This document shows, piece by piece, positions 48,087-58,155 of a DNA stretch of 64,000 nt. How positions within the stretch are numbered: position 1 is the stretch's first letter; every line of letters begins with the position of its first letter. The position numbers and the translations under genes were made by a program. Below the pieces are notes generated by a model. That model made no database searches and was not told the DNA's origin. It saw only the letters and a list, made by a program, of their open reading frames with translations. The DNA comes from Escherichia coli. Its GTDB lineage: Bacteria > Pseudomonadota > Gammaproteobacteria > Enterobacterales > Enterobacteriaceae. The DNA lies in NCBI RefSeq assembly GCF_041248615.1, contig NZ_CP158426.1, one strand, 5' to 3'.

Positions 48087-49223
48087 ATGGATCTATTGAT
48101 TGTTTTAACTTACGTGGCGCTGGCGTGGGCGGTCTTTAAAATCTTCCGCATTCCGGTGAATCAGTGGACGCTGGCGACGGCGGCGCTGGGAGGCGTGTTT
48201 CTGGTGAGTGGTTTGATTTTGTTGATGAACTACAACCACCCTTACACTTTTACCGCGCAAAAGGCAGTGATAGCGATCCCCATCACGCCACAGGTGACGG
48301 GAATTGTTACTGAAGTCACTGACAAGAATAATCAGCTTATTCAAAAGGGCGAGGTGCTTTTTAAACTCGACCCGGTTCGTTACCAGGCGCGAGTTGACAG
48401 ACTTCAGGCTGACCTGATGACGGCGACGCATAATATAAAGACGCTGCGCGCGCAGCTCTCTGAAGCGCAGGCCAACACCACCCAGGTTTCAGCGGAGCGC
48501 GACCGTCTGTTTAAAAATTATCAACGTTATCTGAAAGGCAGCCAGGCGGCGGTGAATCCGTTCTCGGAACGTGACATCGACGATGCGCGGCAAAACTTCC
48601 TCGCGCAGGACGCGCTGGTGAAAGGCTCGGTGGCGGAGCAGGCGCAGATCCAGAGCCAGCTCGACAGTATGGTTAACGGCGAGCAATCGCAGATTGTGAG
48701 CTTAAGAGCGCAACTTACTGAAGCAAAATATAACCTTGAGCAGACTGTCATTCGCGCGCCGAGCAATGGCTACGTTACTCAGGTACTGATCCGCCCAGGT
48801 ACATACGCAGCTGCCTTGCCGTTGCGTCCGGTGATGGTTTTCATCCCCGAGCAAAAACGGCAAATTGTCGCCCAATTTCGGCAAAACTCGCTGTTACGTC
48901 TGAAACCCGGCGATGATGCGGAAGTGGTGTTTAACGCGCTACCTGGGCAGGTGTTCCACGGCAAACTGACTAGCATTTTACCTGTCGTGCCAGGCGGTTC
49001 TTATCAGGCGCAGGGGGTATTGCAATCATTAACGGTCGTGCCCGGCACGGACGGTGTGCTGGGAACCATTGAACTGGACCCTAACGATGATATCGATGCC
49101 TTACCCGACGGCATCTACGCCCAGGTGGCGGTTTACTCCGACCATTTCAGCCATGTTTCGGTGATGCGGAAAGTGCTGCTAAGAATGACCAGCTGGATGC
49201 ATTATCTTTATTTGGATCATTGA
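48087..49223 (+). CDS. yibH: HlyD-family membrane fusion-like protein YibH
   Basis: 378 aa; N-terminal TM helix then coiled-coil and barrel region. Confidence 0.9.
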
Positions 49224-49680
49224 GGGGGGCGGGGGAGATTATGGAACTTTGCTCCCTGCAAGGACTAATTATTTTTGCATATTATTTCATCGGCTGTGAT
49301 GATTTTTCGTTAATATCCATTATGTTAAGAAGTTCGGGATGAGTGTGAACTCATTGGATTTTTTATCCGTCTTGATCTGCCGAAGGATCAGACTATACAT
49401 TGTCGAGATCGCAATGATGATATGAGTTGTTCCTCTGCCACGGCTCTAATCAAAAAAGAGCAGGAGTGCTTTTCCATCTATTGCGATGATGGCTTTATTA
49501 TCTGAAGGATGACAGTCACATTTAAAAATATTTAATTTATAGATCACAATGTAGGTTCATGTAATATATGTATACAACTATTTTTCTCTTCACTTTTAAT
49601 TATCGTATTCATTATAACACTAAGTTAAAAAAACTCCTGGAGAGTGAGTTATTAATATGTTTTTAAATATAATTAAGTTA

Positions 49681-50202
49681 TTATTCATCGATGCATTTTA
49701 TAGAATCATCAATGGCTACAATAGTACTATTAACTCTCCAATTTATATTTTTATTATCATTGCAAATATTAACTGAATCTATATCAATGATTTTTTTATT
49801 TTTATCTTTTATTTTGTTTACAGTTTCAATGCAATCAGCGACAAGTTGGTGTGGATTTAGATTCTTCAGATATGGTCTTATGATCTTTCCCTTGCTTAAT
49901 AAATAGCATGTATAGGATTCGGAAAGTCCAGCATCTATTTTGTACATCATTATTCTAGATAAGGATGTGAGAAATGCCTTGTTATCATTAGCAGCCATAT
50001 ATGCCAGTCCGAGTTCAGCCTCTGCGGCTTTACATGAAAAATAGCTAAGTGAACACGCTTTTCGTCCCTCTTGGGTACTGGCTGATATTAGTGCCCATAA
50101 TATTGCCTTGTCTGCCAAATCCAACTCTCTCTGAAATTGGTTTACAGTAACTGCATTCGCAGAAATAGAGAAGAAAAGCACAATTGTTAATAACCTTGTC
50201 AT
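49681..50202 (-). CDS. Hypothetical secreted Cys-rich protein (candidate periplasmic immunity protein of the orphan module)
   Basis: 173 aa; signal peptide MTRLLTIVLFFSISANA; seven Cys; AT-rich; starts 4 nt after the stop of the upstream small ORF. Confidence 0.5.
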   Translation of the reverse strand: MTRLLTIVLFFSISANAVTVNQFQRELDLADKAILWALISASTQEGRKACSLSYFSCKAAEAELGLAYMAANDNKAFLTSLSRIMMYKIDAGLSESYTCYLLSKGKIIRPYLKNLNPHQLVADCIETVNKIKDKNKKIIDIDSVNICNDNKNINWRVNSTIVAIDDSIKCIDE

Positions 50203-50206
50203 ATTT

Positions 50207-50482
50207 CTAGTCCGTCACTGTTAATGTGCTATCTGGCTCTGAAAATATTAGCTCATTTAATTTTTGCATGTCATTAGATGAACCAGTTATACAACCCTCG
50301 GAACAGAATCGAGGTCCTAAAGATGGACCAAAAGCGTTTAAACAACTATGTGTTAAAAATCCATCACGATTATACGTTTCTGTATTTGCTGACGGTACTA
50401 AACGTATACCATTAGGTTTTCTATTGGTTGCTCCAGGACTGTTAAGCAAGCCTCGTCCGGTTTGCTTCATTGAGTTCTCCAC
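50207..50482 (-). CDS. Hypothetical small protein (candidate orphan toxin tip)
   Basis: 91 aa; internal Met MKQTGRG (start at 50470) has GGAG SD 7 nt upstream; preceded by a vestigial rhs start ATGAGCGGAAAACCAGCGG...TAA. Confidence 0.4.
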   Translation of the reverse strand: MENSMKQTGRGLLNSPGATNRKPNGIRLVPSANTETYNRDGFLTHSCLNAFGPSLGPRFCSEGCITGSSNDMQKLNELIFSEPDSTLTVTD

Positions 50483-50570
50483 TTTAGACTATTGGACTAT
50501 CTTTCAACATGGCATCGCCTTAGTATACCGCTGGTTTTCCGCTCATTGTTAATTTTCTCTTTCGTTCATT

Positions 50571-50981
50571 TCACTTAATTTTCAGTTTTTTCCAAAAGTC
50601 AATATTCCCTTCTAATAAAATTTTTTCTATGGAATCTTCATTAATTTTATTATTAGAGCATATGACATTATCTTGAACGCCATATGACACCACCCCGTTT
50701 TTATCAATATAATATCTGTCTTTACCATCAATAATATAAATCCTAACATTTTTATCATCAAAATGGTAACACTCATTACTAGACCTGTTCAGTAACATTA
50801 ATAACTTCTCACGATTTATCTGTAATAATTTTTGTGCACCATCTTTTATTGCAAAATTTTCAATTTTACTTTTAGTGACAGGGGAATATGTTTGGATGCG
50901 AAAAGGCATCCTATAATGGAAAACATCAGCTATACAGCAAGATGAAAAAAATACGGAAATAAAATACAGACATACTTTCAT
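50571..50981 (-). CDS. Candidate Rhs immunity protein
   Basis: 136 aa; AGGAG SD 5 nt upstream; 57 bp downstream of the rhs stop; AT-rich; hydrophobic N-terminus MKVCLYFISVFFSSCC. Confidence 0.55.
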   Translation of the reverse strand: MKVCLYFISVFFSSCCIADVFHYRMPFRIQTYSPVTKSKIENFAIKDGAQKLLQINREKLLMLLNRSSNECYHFDDKNVRIYIIDGKDRYYIDKNGVVSYGVQDNVICSNNKINEDSIEKILLEGNIDFWKKLKIK

Positions 50982-51038: not shown

Positions 51039-53124
51039 TTAATATTTCATTCTTGCTGGCAAGCCCAACTCTTTACGAAATGGGTTTTCATATTTATCAA
51101 CATTAGCCATCGAGTCAGTTCCATCGTCTTTCATTCCCTTTGCATGCCCCATTTCATGCGCAAGAACCACACTCAACAGAGTGGGTTTCATGGCACATGC
51201 TTTGTTTTTTCCTTGATATACACATGAGCTATGGTCGTTATCAATATCAATGTAAAAACTATATTCAGTATCATCGTAGCATGTTTGGTTTATGCCTTTT
51301 CTTAATCCTCTAAATATATATTCATGCTCTGATGACTCTAATTCTTCTGTTATTTTATGTCCAAACTTTGTTTCTGCTACAGCTTTATATGCTTCTTTTA
51401 AAGTTTTTTGTGTACTTTCATCTCCCTGAAAAGACACTTTTAACCCTAATGGATCGAAACCAGATACCGGATTCAACGGATACTGATAAAAATTCCATCC
51501 CCCCTTAAGCCCAATCGGATCCTGAGTGATATACCGCCCCTGCAGCGGGTCATAATAGCGGTGGCGGTTGTAATAGAGGCCGGACTCCTCATCATACTGC
51601 TGACCCGGCAGGCGGATGAGCTGCTGCAGCTGGTGCGGGTTCTCTTCATTCAGCAGGTTGCCCCATTCATCGTATTCTGCGCACCATTCTGTTGCCCCTT
51701 CCGTGCTGACAAGCGCCAGCGGCAGGCCGCGATGGTCGCAGTGGTACAGGTGGATTTTTCGCGCCGGCGTGTACACCGGGTCCATCTGGTTTTGTATCTG
51801 CTCCACCGTCAGGCCGCACGATGCCAGCCAGCGGCGGCTTTCCTCACTCACCCGGTCAGCCAGGATTTCACTTTCCAGCCGGTCGAGCATCTGCACCAGC
51901 ACCGGCGGGAACACCACACTGCCACCGTCTTCACCGCCGGACTGCTGAAGCGCATCCGCCAGGCTGCGGCGCTGCGTTTTCGCCAGCTCACCGGTGGCAG
52001 TTTCAACTCTGATGAGTGGCGTGAAGCTCCCCGGCTGATAAACCGTCTGGATGCGGGTTCTGTCGTTCTGTATTGTGGTCAGCCGGTCGCCGTCCCAGCC
52101 GTACCAGGTCACTTCCGGTTTCCGTGACAGCGACATCCAGCCCGTCAGGTCCCGTTCACGCCGCCACACCCGTTTTGCCACCCTGCGGCCCAGCGGGTCG
52201 TAAAGATAGCGACTTTCGACCAGCGGCTCTGCATATTGTGTCCGCGTGTAGTGCACCAGCCGGTGCCGGCTGTCGTAATGGTACCGGTGAGTCCGCTCAT
52301 CATCCGTGCGGATAACCCCTTCCGGGATGAGGTCGGTTTTCTCCGTCAGCCTGCCGTGACGGTCATACCGGTAAAGATAGTGCGCGTCACGGGCGATACG
52401 GTTATCCGGCCACATGCTGAGGGTGCTGTCCGGGTGCAGCTCCGGGTCGGGCAGGCGGTTACCTGCCGGGTCCGTGGCATACGGGATGCGGATATCCAGA
52501 TTCGCTGCGGTGGTGTGGACGCCGGTCAGCCTGCCGGTGTCGCTGTAGCTGTAACTCCGGGTCTGGCGCGGGCTGCTGATGCGGATGAGTTCGCCGTTGT
52601 CGTTCCAGGTGTAATCGCGGTCATACTGCAGGCTGTTCAGGTGCTGGCTCTGTAACTGCCCGGCAGAGGTGTAAGCGGTGGTGAGTTCATAACGGCCGAA
52701 GCTGCGCAGCGTTTCCCGGTGCAGGCGGTCGCGGGTGTACTCCACCAGCGGTGTGTCGCCGAGTTTCATGCCTGACAGCCAGCCGCTGCCGTAGGTCAGC
52801 CATTCCACGGCGGGCAGGCTGTCCGGTATACAGCGGTTCGCCAGTCCCTGCGCGTTGTACGCATGTCTGGTTTCATGCTGCCAGAGCAGTGCTTCCGTCT
52901 GCGGGTGATGCACCGTCTGGCGCTCACCGGTCAGGCGGCCTTTCTCATCATACCCGTAATGCACCGTCACCCGGTGGCCTTCGCTGAGATGGCTGATTTG
53001 TGTCAGCCAGCCGCGTTCGTCGTACCGCCACTGTTCTGCGGTTTCACCATTCACCGTTCGCTGTGTGATGCGGTCTGCTTCGTCATAGTGCCAGTGGGTG
53101 ACCAGCCCCTCATCCTCGCTGCGG
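51039..53124 (-). pseudogene. rhsA: rhs C-terminal fragment: YD-repeat core, DPxGL boundary, HExxH-containing C-terminal toxin domain
   Basis: YD repeats; ...[11 protein letters not shown]...[17 protein letters not shown]...; the ORF-track start [14 protein letters not shown] is encoded by the IS21 end. Confidence 0.85.
53119..53124. repeat. Target-site duplication CTGCGG (IS21-family insertion), copy 1
   Basis: Identical hexamer at 55706-55711 immediately outside the opposite IS end. Confidence 0.6.
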
Positions 53125-53209
53125 TGCGTATTACCGTGAAGGAGATCGGTGAGTAACATCGATGGAGATCGGTTCGTGTCACTTTCACAGAACCGTTTTT
53201 AAATTACCT

Positions 53210-53959
53210 TCACTGATCTCCTTCGGTCAACGGAGATTGTATTTTCCGCATTGATTCTCCTTTAAGTTCGATCTTGATACTGCCATGAACCAGTCGATCT
53301 AGGATGGCATCCGCATGTGTGGAGTCTCCGATCATTTTGTACCAGTTTTCCACCGGCAACTGGCTCACTACGATGATTGAGCCTCGTTGGTACATCAGAT
53401 CCACTATTTCCAGCAGGTCGCTACGCTGTTCTGATGAGAGAGGTTCCAGCCCCCAGTCATCCAGAAGCAGCAGATCGCTATTATTCAGCCTGGTCAAAAG
53501 TTTGCTGTATCTTCCATCAGCATGCCCCTGATAGCACTGTTCCATCAGCGCTTTAAGGCGATAATAGTAGACCTTGTATCCCTGTCGGCAGGCATTATGA
53601 CCAAGTGCACATGCCAGGAACGTTTTACCGCTGCCGGTGGCCCCGGTCAGTAAAATATTTTGTTTCAGGGTTAACCAGTTTCCCTGACTGAGTGAACGGA
53701 TGAGGGCCCTGTCCAGCCCTCTATTGTTACGATAATCCAGCTTTGATAACTCAGCATTAAGTCTGAACCGTGCATGTTTGATCAGACGCTCTGCCTTCCT
53801 GTTTTCACGGCAGGTTAGTTCTTCTGCTGTCAGTAATGACAGGCGTTCTTCGAAGCCCAGCTCCTGGTATGTGCCCGGCTGAGCAAGTTGCTTTTTAAGC
53901 GCATCACGGAAGCCGGTGAGTTTAAGTGCGGTCAGTTGTTCGTAAAGATGATTCATCAT
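53210..53959 (-). CDS. istB: IS21-family helper ATPase IstB
   Basis: 249 aa; Walker A GATGSGKT. Confidence 0.9.
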   Translation of the reverse strand: MMNHLYEQLTALKLTGFRDALKKQLAQPGTYQELGFEERLSLLTAEELTCRENRKAERLIKHARFRLNAELSKLDYRNNRGLDRALIRSLSQGNWLTLKQNILLTGATGSGKTFLACALGHNACRQGYKVYYYRLKALMEQCYQGHADGRYSKLLTRLNNSDLLLLDDWGLEPLSSEQRSDLLEIVDLMYQRGSIIVVSQLPVENWYKMIGDSTHADAILDRLVHGSIKIELKGESMRKIQSPLTEGDQ

Positions 53960-53970
53960 TGGATCCCGTA

Positions 53971-55512
53971 TCAGTGGTAATACTCACTGCCGCGTACGTT
54001 TTCGTGTTCCATCGTGGATAACAGATCTGGTTTTGGATCCTGAACAGGTTGTTTATCCAGACCTTTTTCCAGGATCGATTTAATACCTGACAGACGCCAT
54101 ACCTTTGTTTTCAGAGCTCTTGCACATGCTGCATTAAGTCTGGCTTTACTGTATTTTTTATGAAGGTTCAGGAGTCCAAGGCAGAAGCGATAGCTTTGTT
54201 CCGGATGTGGACGAGAGTTCAGTATATGAAGCACATAACTATGAGTTTCACTGCCTATGTGCCCCGCCCATTCCAGAAGACGCTCTGGCGTCCAGGTGGC
54301 ATGCTGTCGATGAGCTTCAGGCATGTGCTCGTTGCGGGTACTGTAGCCATAAGTACGCTTGCGCGGGTGCACAGCAACCTCCTGCCCCTGATTGAAGAGT
54401 CTTACCAGTTCTCCGGAGATCCATGCTTCCAGTTGCTGGCCTAACAGCGAACATGGAACCGAGTAGTAATGTTTGTCGATTTCCACGTGGTAATCGGCAT
54501 GAACTCTGACTTTCTTCACCAGGGTGTAACTGTAACTGGCTTCAGGAAGAGGCTTCAGTGCGGGTTTATCAAGCTGGATGAAGAGTTCTGCACGTGAATA
54601 ACCCAACTTCTGCATTATTTTGTTATTCAGTCTTTCCAGCAACTCCCGAATGCGCTGATTAAGCGATGCAAGGCTGTAGAAGATCTCATGCCTGATTCGG
54701 GCCATGATCCAGCGTTCAACAACCTGAACGCCAACTTCAGCTTTGGCTTTATCTTTCGGTTTACGTGGCCGCGCAGGCAAAACTGCGACATTATAATGCT
54801 CAAGCATCTGCTGGTAGGTAGGGTTAACGTCAGGATCATACTTACATGCCCTGGATGTGGCGCTTTTCAGATTGTCCGGAACAACAAGTTCAGGAACGCC
54901 ACCCAACCACTGGAAGCAGCGAACATGACTCATCACCCAGTCTTCAAGCTGCTGAGACCAGGTGGCCTCTGCCCATGTGTAACTTGATGCCCCGAGAACA
55001 GCTACGATGACCTGAGCAGTTCTTATTTCTCCGGTCTCAGGGTCGGTAACGCCAACGGTAGGTCCACAGTAATCAACGAAAAGTTTTTCGCCAGCTTTAT
55101 GTACCTGACGCATTGATGGTGAAGTGGTTTTGAGCCATTCACGGTACATCCGGCAGTAATGGTTATAGCTGTAAAAACCGCCTGGATTACGCTCACAGTA
55201 TTCTTCCCAGAGTAGCTGCAGCGTCACGCATTTATTACGCAGTTCCCGGTGTACTGTAGCCCAGTCAGGCAGAGAGTGCTTCTTCATCTTAACCTGGGTC
55301 TGAAGGAACGCATGTTTTAGTTTTGTATCATCCCATCCTGTAGGTAAGGGCCACTGCTTTATGCCAAGTTGAGCCGCCCGATTAGCATATCTGGATACAA
55401 CGGAAGGGGAGATTGCAAGACTACGACCAATTTGTCGATGGCTGAGTCCAACACCGTATTTAAGCCTAAGAATTTCTTTAAGTTTTCTCATAGAAATTGG
55501 AACTGTTGGCAT
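53971..55512 (-). CDS. istA: IS21-family transposase IstA
   Basis: 513 aa; N-terminal HTH and DDE integrase core. Confidence 0.9.
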   Translation of the reverse strand: MPTVPISMRKLKEILRLKYGVGLSHRQIGRSLAISPSVVSRYANRAAQLGIKQWPLPTGWDDTKLKHAFLQTQVKMKKHSLPDWATVHRELRNKCVTLQLLWEEYCERNPGGFYSYNHYCRMYREWLKTTSPSMRQVHKAGEKLFVDYCGPTVGVTDPETGEIRTAQVIVAVLGASSYTWAEATWSQQLEDWVMSHVRCFQWLGGVPELVVPDNLKSATSRACKYDPDVNPTYQQMLEHYNVAVLPARPRKPKDKAKAEVGVQVVERWIMARIRHEIFYSLASLNQRIRELLERLNNKIMQKLGYSRAELFIQLDKPALKPLPEASYSYTLVKKVRVHADYHVEIDKHYYSVPCSLLGQQLEAWISGELVRLFNQGQEVAVHPRKRTYGYSTRNEHMPEAHRQHATWTPERLLEWAGHIGSETHSYVLHILNSRPHPEQSYRFCLGLLNLHKKYSKARLNAACARALKTKVWRLSGIKSILEKGLDKQPVQDPKPDLLSTMEHENVRGSEYYH

Positions 55513-55705
55513 AGGTATCCTTTACCGGAATGGCAAAAGATACAGATCAACACACCTGTGAAGTTCCAATAACATTGATGGAGATCACTGAATAACAAAA
55601 TGAGTCAAAAGTGATCTCCATCGATGTTATTCAGCGATCTGTTCAAATGTTATTACCCGATCTCGATGGAAGTTATTGAGTGATCTCCTTTCATGAAAAT
55701 ACGCA

Positions 55706-56723: not shown

Positions 56724-57478
<755 letters not shown>

Positions 57479-57582
57479 ATCAGCATACTTGTCCTTAGCC
57501 TTCTGCAGTGACAGCTGGTAGTACAGCGTGCTTCTGGCCAGCCCTGCAGCCTTTAACAGGTCAGACTGGCAGTGTCCGCACC

Positions 57583-58113
57583 TCAGGCTCCGGATGACTT
57601 TCGTTTTTTCTCCAGCTCCTGGCGCTTTTTTTCCAGGAGATGCTCCTGCATGGCTTTCAGATATGCATTTTCTGCGCGAAGATAACGCAGCTCATTCTTC
57701 ATCTCTTCCGGCGTCATGTTTGCCTCGTTTTCATGGGTATCATCAGAACGGGTCATGCTTTTCTCCTTCCTGCGCCTGATAAAGGCCTCATTACCAGATT
57801 TGCGGTAGCCTTTTATCCAGTTTTTAACCGTGTTGTGGCTGGGAATGTTAAACCGGGCAGCTACCCGGGGTAGAGACTCAGAATGCCCGAGAGCATAAAG
57901 AACCACGCAAAGTTTATCTTCAGGAGAATAGCTACGCTTGTGTCTGCAATCCAGTGCCCGAGGACCGTGAAGAAGAAAAAGATTAATCCAGTGTGAGAGG
58001 CTGGTGTGAGAAAGTTGAAAGAGTTTTGCCGTAGAAATGATGCCTGTATGACCAGCCAGGTAATGATTTACAGCGGCAAGTTTTACTTCAAATGAATGTT
58101 TCATAAACTGCAC
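57583..58113 (-). CDS. IS3-family transposase OrfA (HTH)
   Basis: 176 aa; N-terminus resembles IS150-group OrfA; leucine-zipper-like C-terminus. Confidence 0.85.
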   Translation of the reverse strand: MQFMKHSFEVKLAAVNHYLAGHTGIISTAKLFQLSHTSLSHWINLFLLHGPRALDCRHKRSYSPEDKLCVVLYALGHSESLPRVAARFNIPSHNTVKNWIKGYRKSGNEAFIRRRKEKSMTRSDDTHENEANMTPEEMKNELRYLRAENAYLKAMQEHLLEKKRQELEKKRKSSGA

Positions 58114-58155
58114 CTTCAGATGTCAGATTATGTCCAACATTTGGGGTGCAGTTCA

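Follow-up and report, generated by a model that had tools for sequence, protein, structure and literature searches.

A displaced Rhs toxin-immunity module with a truncated Tlde1-type tip and an intact Imm57 gene at the rhsA locus of Escherichia coli

The minus strand of the window analysed here, a stretch of 64,000 nucleotides (nt) from Escherichia coli contig NZ_CP158426.1 (assembly GCF_041248615.1), carries the rhsA locus, as identified from the gene order selB-selA-yibF-rhs...yibH-yibI-mtlA. Read along that strand, yibF is followed by rhsA, a gene for a protein of 136 amino acids (aa), a pair made up of an 87-aa open reading frame (ORF) and an Imm57-family immunity gene, and finally yibH, placing the pair downstream of the main rhs gene and its presumed immunity gene but still inside the rhs locus. 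The region represents a displaced module at the distal end of the rhsA polymorphic-toxin locus, and its parts, in the direction of transcription, are as follows.

50477-50567, minus strand: vestigial rhs 5' end of the RhsD/ylbI type, with a leader of ~21 nt, an ATG at 50546 and ~23 decayed codons.
50446-50476, minus strand: junction filler of ~31 nt, the source of the ATG at 50470 and of the ~9 codons with which the 87-aa ORF opens.
50207-50470, minus strand: 87-aa ORF (ATG at 50470; 91 aa if read from the GTG at 50482), in which junction filler is fused to the toxin remnant.
50207-50445, minus strand: 3' remnant of a Tlde1/DUF2778 Rhs tip (239 nt), comprising the last ~78 codons of a ~145-aa domain and the stop codon.
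49681-50202, minus strand: intact Imm57-family immunity gene (173 aa), starting 4 nt after the TAG of the toxin remnant.

The 87-aa ORF, which has a GGAG 6 nt upstream of its ATG, was left uncalled by RefSeq in the identical locus L001, although public data hold it as protein cluster P0001. An earlier sequence-only reading of this DNA had described an 87-91-aa ORF with a GGAG, followed 4 nt on by a 173-aa ORF with a signal-like N-terminus, and both are present. Residues 12-87 of the shorter ORF are identical at all 76 positions to the end of a 1392-aa RhsA encoded at the same locus in strain PE164; the refuting condition named beforehand, that the 87-aa sequence never ends a larger toxin, therefore does not hold. 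Similarly, in protein P0002 a DPLGL motif precedes a domain of ~145 aa, and only one of the last 76 residues of this domain departs from residues 12-87 of the ORF. Homology of the toxin remnant starts at 50445 against the intact alleles L003-L008 and at 50437 against K-12 yibW, and the first 11 residues of the ORF derive from unrelated junction sequence. The ORF begins at about residue 69 of the 145-aa domain. The remnant keeps a His and an SxGC Cys resembling those of the catalytic motif of L,D-transpeptidases. Six of the ten beta-strands predicted for the domain are missing from it, as are the DPxGL junction, the Rhs core and the PAAR domain. No 3' fragment of an rhs core lies ahead of the tip remnant in the window, whereas one is present in K-12 (yibS) and in loci L007, L008 and L018. 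From this anatomy we infer that the 87-aa ORF is an inactive remnant that can neither fold, be delivered nor be reactivated by core recombination, because the front half of the fold, the DPxGL junction and the delivery sequence are gone. An independent small toxin was considered for this ORF and rejected, as only the C-terminal ~53% of the toxin domain is present.

The family of the tip was established on intact relatives. The 87-aa ORF itself matches Pfam Tlde1_dom (PF10908) at an expect value (E) of 1.1e-3 over model positions 66-107 of 120, while the intact tip matches at E=3e-7 over positions 10-106 of 120, and seven of ten relatives of the tip reach E<=1e-3. An AlphaFold model of the intact tip (mean predicted local distance difference test score, pLDDT, 76) contains ten strands, and in a Foldseek comparison with the PDB its top nine matches were all L,D-transpeptidases or L,D-carboxypeptidases, with template modelling (TM) scores of 0.37-0.55 and probabilities of 0.92-1.0 for the top eight and 0.47 for the ninth. 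An alignment of the ten relatives shows the motif H-S-C...C-S-x-G-C, in which the H, S, G and C are invariant; here it takes the form H-X15-S-E-G-C-I, the position of the second His being occupied by E (or by K, A or Q). On the profile matches and the predicted structure, the intact tip is a Tlde1/DUF2778 domain with an L,D-transpeptidase (YkuD-type) fold. NCBIfam has no family for the intact tip, the 87-aa ORF, the 173-aa ORF or the 136-aa protein.

Such domains have been described on Rhs proteins before. A 'Tox-LD-peptidase' domain, often carried by Rhs proteins, has been paired with Imm57 (PMC3482391), and Rhs-DUF2778 fusions have been reported in Shigella and Escherichia (bioRxiv 10.1101/2020.02.18.954545). 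The effector Tlde1a acts as an L,D-carboxypeptidase and exchange transpeptidase on peptidoglycan stem peptides in the target periplasm, causing swelling and lysis (PMC9638812); the L,D-transpeptidase motif is given as H-X(14-17)-(S/T)-H-G-C-h in the same work (PMC9638812). By homology with Tlde1a, a live Rhs-Tlde1 toxin likely attacks peptidoglycan stem peptides in the periplasm of the target cell. More distant tips (50-53% identity) form the C-termini of Rhs/YD proteins of 1385-1570 aa. A short PAAR-Tlde1 fusion was considered as the ancestor and rejected, all inspected relatives of ~220-530 aa being an Rhs core 3' fragment plus the tip.

The 173-aa protein matches Pfam Imm57 (PF15596) at E=2e-44 over model positions 2-100 of 100, and RefSeq names the identical gene 'Imm57 family immunity protein'. 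Its N-terminus (MTRLLTIVLFFSISANA) consists of MTR, an 11-residue hydrophobic core and A-N-A, which is the form of a Sec-type leader, and a Sec signal peptide with cleavage after ANA17 is expected from it. Imm57 homologues at 26-32% identity that lie beside full-length Rhs genes have equivalent N-terminal hydrophobic leaders and share five invariant cysteines; the window protein has six in total, one fewer than the seven counted at first. These features suggest that Imm57 is probably a Sec-exported, disulfide-bonded periplasmic protein. Its AlphaFold model (pLDDT 70) is all-alpha, in agreement with the published description of the family (PMC3482391), and Foldseek with this model returned no significant solved relative. 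Relative to the intact rhsB-locus allele, at 6.5% nucleotide divergence, the ratio of nonsynonymous to synonymous substitution rates (dN/dS) is ~0.32, though much of that divergence may predate the orphan state. The sequence-only reading had proposed an orphan toxin/immunity-type pair with a periplasmic partner, and the identity of the 87-aa sequence to the end of PE164 RhsA, together with the co-occurrence of tip and Imm57 gene, supports this as an Rhs pair; the 87-aa member, as the C-terminal part of a domain, is not a small toxin by itself.

In the K-12-type Imm57 gene the frameshift in the signal peptide is a homopolymer change in the signal-peptide codons, with T7 where the intact rhsB-locus allele has T8. 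The tract lies at 9263-9300 of L002 (K-12 yibV), 7905-7940 of L017 (PE164), 468-500 of L003 and 8468-8505 of L008; in the window gene (50202-50160) it is interrupted (CTTTTCTTC) and the frame is maintained. PE164 combines an intact full-length RhsA-Tlde1 toxin with a T7-frameshifted immunity gene, for which slippage-based switching, a silent toxin or a sequencing error are possible explanations.

The module is widespread in the species. It was found in 3683 of 5426 complete E. coli genomes, of which 3367 fall into a K-12-like class at 90-95% identity, while 275 genomes carry an Imm57 gene at least 99% identical to that of the window. The junction allele with the vestigial start is narrower in its distribution, occurring in 180 E. 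coli genomes by blastn, all at least 99% identical. In 99 complete genomes the tip is joined to at least 460 nt of rhs core. The PE164 protein (WP_096220420.1), for example, is the product of the main rhsA in the same yibF-yibH locus and starts MSGKPAARQGD. In all E. coli loci examined, at both rhsA and rhsB, the Imm57 gene directly follows the tip, and it likewise directly follows the genes of the distant full-length Rhs proteins P0034 and P0037, whose tips are 50-53% identical; loci L003-L008, L017, L021 and L022 all show this adjacency. The proposal that the two genes should co-occur across genomes is therefore borne out at two loci and beyond the close relatives.

Together these alleles form a full series at one locus. 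In some strains RhsA ends in the ~145-aa Tlde1/DUF2778 domain, with a periplasmic Imm57 gene within 5 nt; in others an intact orphan module stands behind a core fragment (L007 and L018), an arrangement that rhsB loci have as well; in K-12 the module is decayed; and in the window it is truncated at its 5' side. The K-12 form (yibS, yibW and yibV; b4650, b4651 and b4615) lies between yibG and yibH, at the same position as the window module just before yibH, and is the last orphan module of the locus, with two further modules upstream. Its nucleotide identity to the window is ~93% from 50437 past the Imm57 stop, with homology running on through yibH, and both strains have the same tip and the same Imm57 gene, the product of the latter being called 'PF15596 family protein' for YibV in EcoCyc and RefSeq. 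The statement in the sequence-only reading that K-12 has different orphan genes at this position is therefore incorrect for this terminal module. The two forms differ in what has been lost: K-12 retains the decayed end of an rhs core (yibS) and a tip of full extent that is interrupted by stops and a frameshift (yibW), but its Imm57 gene (yibV) is frameshifted twice, in the signal peptide and near the 3' end, whereas in the window a vestigial rhs start replaces the core and the front of the tip, and Imm57 is intact. PE164 resembles the window in locus, in the Imm57 gene directly after the tip and in the last 76 residues, but encodes an entire delivery protein of 1392 aa with an undivided toxin domain, both absent from the window, and a T7-frameshifted Imm57.

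RhsA-Tlde1 belongs to the published class of Rhs-DUF2778 fusions (e.g., Shigella sonnei WP_052983304.1) and of 'Tox-LD-peptidase' with Imm57. Tlde1a and Tldi1a of Salmonella Typhimurium are a more distant parallel: Tlde1a shares PF10908, the L,D-transpeptidase-type fold and the His and Cys motif with the tip, and Tldi1a has a Sec signal peptide, as is expected for Imm57. However, Tlde1a is a stand-alone 173-aa cargo effector of the type VI secretion system rather than an Rhs tip, its motif is (S/T)HGC where SEGC is found here, and Tldi1a is a DUF2195 protein unrelated to Imm57.

The fragment in front of the toxin remnant was first recognised by a 19-nt sequence resembling an rhs start followed by an early stop, MSGKPAVY and then a stop. 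The sequence ATGAGCGGAAAACCAGCGG lies at 50546-50528, about 17 nt downstream of the coordinates initially given for it (~50563-50537), and agrees at 18 of 19 nt with the true rhsA start at 59203-59185; the same 19 nt are identical (19/19) to the start of K-12 rhsD, and 100 shuffles gave no match to the 19-mer with two or fewer mismatches. The translation reads MSGKPAVY, stop, GDAMLKDSPIV, stop, SG, with two in-frame stops and with the spacing of the GD and PIV residues preserved. Past nt 19 the fragment is ~45% identical to any rhs start: over nt 20-70 its in-register identity to the rhs start is 23/51, against a null of 12.8 +/- 3.0 that reaches 23/51 in ~0.1% of random offsets, and beyond ~nt 70 in-register similarity ends (3/31). 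Its leader and start are 35/40 identical to the K-12 pseudogene ylbI, and the 30 nt upstream of the start match ylbI at 19/30 positions but the rhsA leader at only 9/30. On its sequence, 50477-50567 is a genuine rhs 5' end, because of the perfect match to the rhsD start, the preserved GD and PIV spacing and the ylbI-like leader. The junction filler that follows has no similarity to rhs starts (the same 3/31 in register) or to the intact toxin alleles. On the other side, homology to the E. albertii loci that carry a relative of the 136-aa protein ends at 50565, just beyond the stop of the 136-aa gene, and, with homology to intact toxin alleles beginning at 50445, the 119 nt left comprise the start fragment and the ~31 nt of filler.

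The closest parallel to this fragment is ylbI itself (b4632; 96 nt; L025 7498-7593), at the distal end of the K-12 rhsD locus; roughly one complete E. coli genome in two carries it at >=99% identity. Like the window fragment, it is a short rhs 5' piece with its leader lying past orphan modules, and both are of the 'GPIV' type. They differ in decay, since over nt 20-70 ylbI agrees with a real rhs start at 78% of positions and the window fragment, with its two stops, at only ~45%, and in surroundings, ylbI adjoining an IS3-like remnant (ylbG) and the window fragment a toxin tip. In L026 (930-11250), two complete rhs genes stand behind one vgrG, the second with a ylbI-like leader.

Upstream and downstream of the module lie the following features, of which the first two concern the tip that rhsA now carries.

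51039-51440, minus strand: current C-terminal tip of rhsA, after a DPLGL motif; HExxH metallopeptidase-like.
50571-50981, minus strand: 136-aa ORF, N-terminus signal-like, adjoining the vestigial start on its left.
59203, minus strand: true start of the window rhsA (19-mer 59203-59185).
56724-58155, minus strand: IS3-family insertion sequence (IS) in rhsA, 1432 nt, delimited against L001.
53137-55705, minus strand: IS21-family element in rhsA, ~2.57 kb, with istA and istB, ISEc12-like, delimited against L001.
49288-49519, minus strand: remains of a decayed ISAs1 (H-repeat) transposase gene, downstream of Imm57 and corresponding to pseudogene yibU of K-12.
48087-49223, plus strand: yibH, followed by yibI and mtlA.

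The translation of the current tip contains HEMGH, and its match to Pfam Peptidase_M91 is weak (E=1.2e-3). Homology of the window rhsA core with other rhs genes stops near 51441. The 136-aa gene is presumed to be the immunity gene of this tip, and relatives of its product were found in E. coli and E. albertii only; in E. albertii the gene of the homologue, apparently an orphan, stands second, after a different Rhs that is linked to vgrG and a protein of 149 aa. The window rhsA is split by the two IS elements, both of which are missing from the otherwise near-identical locus L001. The 49288-49519 fragment is 77-79% identical to the ISAs1 transposase genes that flank the Tlde1/Imm57 module in L007 and L008. 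ISAs1 (H-repeat) genes or remnants lie repeatedly beside this module, upstream in L007 (6773-7909) and downstream in L008 (9164-10300), which suggests that ISAs1 elements helped to shift it between the rhsA and rhsB loci.

We consider it highly probable that the window holds a displaced rhsA-locus module, a dead Tlde1 tip remnant with an intact Imm57 gene, in an allele made by tip replacement. In the window lineage, rhsA now carries the metallopeptidase-like tip with its 136-aa partner, and the old module keeps only the 3' 239 nt of its tip and the whole of Imm57. The replacement DNA would have consisted of the 3' part of the core, the metallopeptidase-like tip and the 136-aa gene, entering on the left by recombination within the conserved rhs core. 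Its right end would already have borne a decayed ylbI-like rhs 5' fragment and would have been joined illegitimately inside the resident Tlde1 tip, at 50445/50446. The vestigial start was thus probably a relic when it was joined on, as we infer from its state, rather than the product of a single internal deletion. That alternative, in which a tandem rhs gene with the vestigial start and the Tlde1 tip lost ~4 kb between about codon 25-33 and the middle of the tip, would account for the short distance (~100 nt) from the start fragment to the toxin remnant downstream, both on one strand, and tandem rhs genes parted only by an immunity gene do exist in E. coli (L026), so that an rhs start right after an immunity gene is a natural arrangement. 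However, one recent deletion is improbable because the start fragment is far more decayed than the toxin piece: two stops and ~45% identity in the one stand against 76 unchanged residues in the other, where equal decay would be expected. Moreover, at this locus the Tlde1 tip is found on the main rhsA, with its rhsA-type start, or as an orphan behind core 3' fragments and was never observed behind a start of its own, and the ~31 junction nt match neither partner. Of the origin first suggested for the pair, by deletion or recombination, it is accordingly recombination that stands, while a single deletion within one rhs gene does not fit the unequal decay. A wider proposal, which we regard as doubtful, is that stranded rhs 5' fragments such as those of the window and ylbI are systematic scars of the right-hand ends of tip-replacement cassettes from tandem rhs arrays, the next rhs start having served as a second recombination anchor or boundary as toxin tips passed between strains, and that the chimeric ORF was kept for coupled translation of an Imm57 still protective against Rhs-Tlde1 attackers.

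Several observations weigh against this account or parts of it. The direct match of the window ORF to Tlde1_dom is weak, so that the family assignment rests on the intact relatives; the motif is the variant SEGC rather than (S/T)HGC, and its His-Cys spacing is YkuD-like where that of Tlde1a is described as shorter. Single-sequence and profile searches of the PDB with the tip missed the solved Tlde1a, returning alphavirus capsids at E ~1 and nothing related, and Tlde1a was not among the top fold matches of the intact-tip model. No donor of the start fragment was found by blastn of E. coli genomes, which returned the same allele only (180 genomes), in the E. albertii loci, or by a pattern scan of 100,044 species genomes, which returned only two ordinary GC-rich rhs starts, both in Citrobacter amalonaticus. 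The literature searched contained no experimental demonstration that an Imm57 protein neutralises a toxin. A scan for promoters and terminators gave nothing above chance, the one paper that mentions yibV and ylbI does no more than list RpoD binding sites near them, determined in vitro, and expression of Imm57 is uncertain because the upstream rhsA is interrupted by two IS elements. Finally, K-12 stands here for the most frequent allele class (3367 of 5426 genomes), and its frameshifted immunity gene points to weak selection on the orphan immunity gene.

The two C. amalonaticus starts belong to two rhs genes of JARDVN010000001.1 (L019 1923 and L020 1248) with near-identical leaders and starts, one of which is apparently frameshifted soon past the PAAR region (GGGGGGCATGACTTCC versus GGTGGCAGAACCTCC). 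The ylbI lead came from a search of a plasmid collection with the vestigial start; two of the four matching records were examined and both proved to be chromosomal DNA of the rhsD locus. In L023 (NZ_CP069916.1, labelled as a Klebsiella oxytoca plasmid) and L024 (NZ_CP137697.1), the stretches examined correspond to the rhsD-mnmH-allS region as in the K-12 chromosome, and the 19-kb linear K. oxytoca record looks like a misassigned or contaminating contig.

An exported Imm57 would bind and block the toxin in the periplasm, and there is about an even chance that the orphan copy still protects its carrier from neighbouring cells that deploy Rhs-Tlde1. In favour are the intact ORF and leader, a dN/dS of ~0.32 and the occurrence in the species of strains with live Rhs-Tlde1; in addition, translation of Imm57 may be coupled to that of the short remnant ORF, which has a good Shine-Dalgarno sequence and a stop 4 nt before the Imm57 start. 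Somewhat less probable, though close behind, is a neutral relic, in which neither ORF is active and Imm57 is intact only through recent displacement, being unexpressed or unneeded. The K-12 representative of the commonest class, with its T7/T8 frameshift and a second one, agrees with such neutrality, as do the T7 frameshift of PE164, whose toxin is intact, the lack of a promoter signal above chance, the two IS elements that disrupt the upstream rhsA, and the youth of the junction allele, which is taken to be young because it is at least 99% identical in all 180 carriers. Against a relic stand the intact ORF with a complete signal peptide, the dN/dS of ~0.32 (although much of the divergence behind it may be older than the orphan state), the near-identical copy kept by 275 genomes, the short ORF with its Shine-Dalgarno sequence ending just ahead of Imm57, and the presence of live Rhs-Tlde1 strains. 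Far less credible than either is a working two-gene toxin-immunity or small-protein system, in which an active 87-aa cytoplasmic protein would be paired with a secreted Cys-rich partner. The open 87-aa frame with its good Shine-Dalgarno sequence, the retained His and Cys of the catalytic motif and the tight juxtaposition with the next gene are what such a system would show, but the ORF covers just positions 66-107 of the 120-position Pfam model, begins after six of the ten strands at about residue 69 of 145, opens with 11 residues of junction filler, and carries neither a signal peptide nor a delivery domain for what would be a periplasmic substrate; the RefSeq annotation also leaves it out.

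Orphan Rhs toxin-immunity modules of Salmonella can reportedly regain activity when they recombine with the main rhs gene (Koskiniemi et al., 2014), and Jackson et al. in 2009 reportedly put forward a C-terminal displacement model. The window resembles both in that a displaced tip and its immunity gene are kept downstream of the current tip. Unlike the reported Salmonella orphans, the copy in the window retains just half a tip and nothing homologous to the core, which makes reactivation by homologous recombination impossible.

The pairing of Rhs L,D-peptidase tips with Imm57 is already published, the families are known and the K-12 counterpart is annotated, so that these findings have little importance beyond annotation. 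They give an identity to an unannotated 87-aa ORF and identify K-12 yibW and yibV as a decayed Tlde1-type Rhs tip and its Imm57 partner. The window Imm57 allele and the PE164 tip would form a convenient pair for a first Imm57 assay. The rhsA locus illustrates tip displacement within one species, and the resemblance of the vestigial start to ylbI gives a hint of how Rhs cassettes acquire their right-hand borders.

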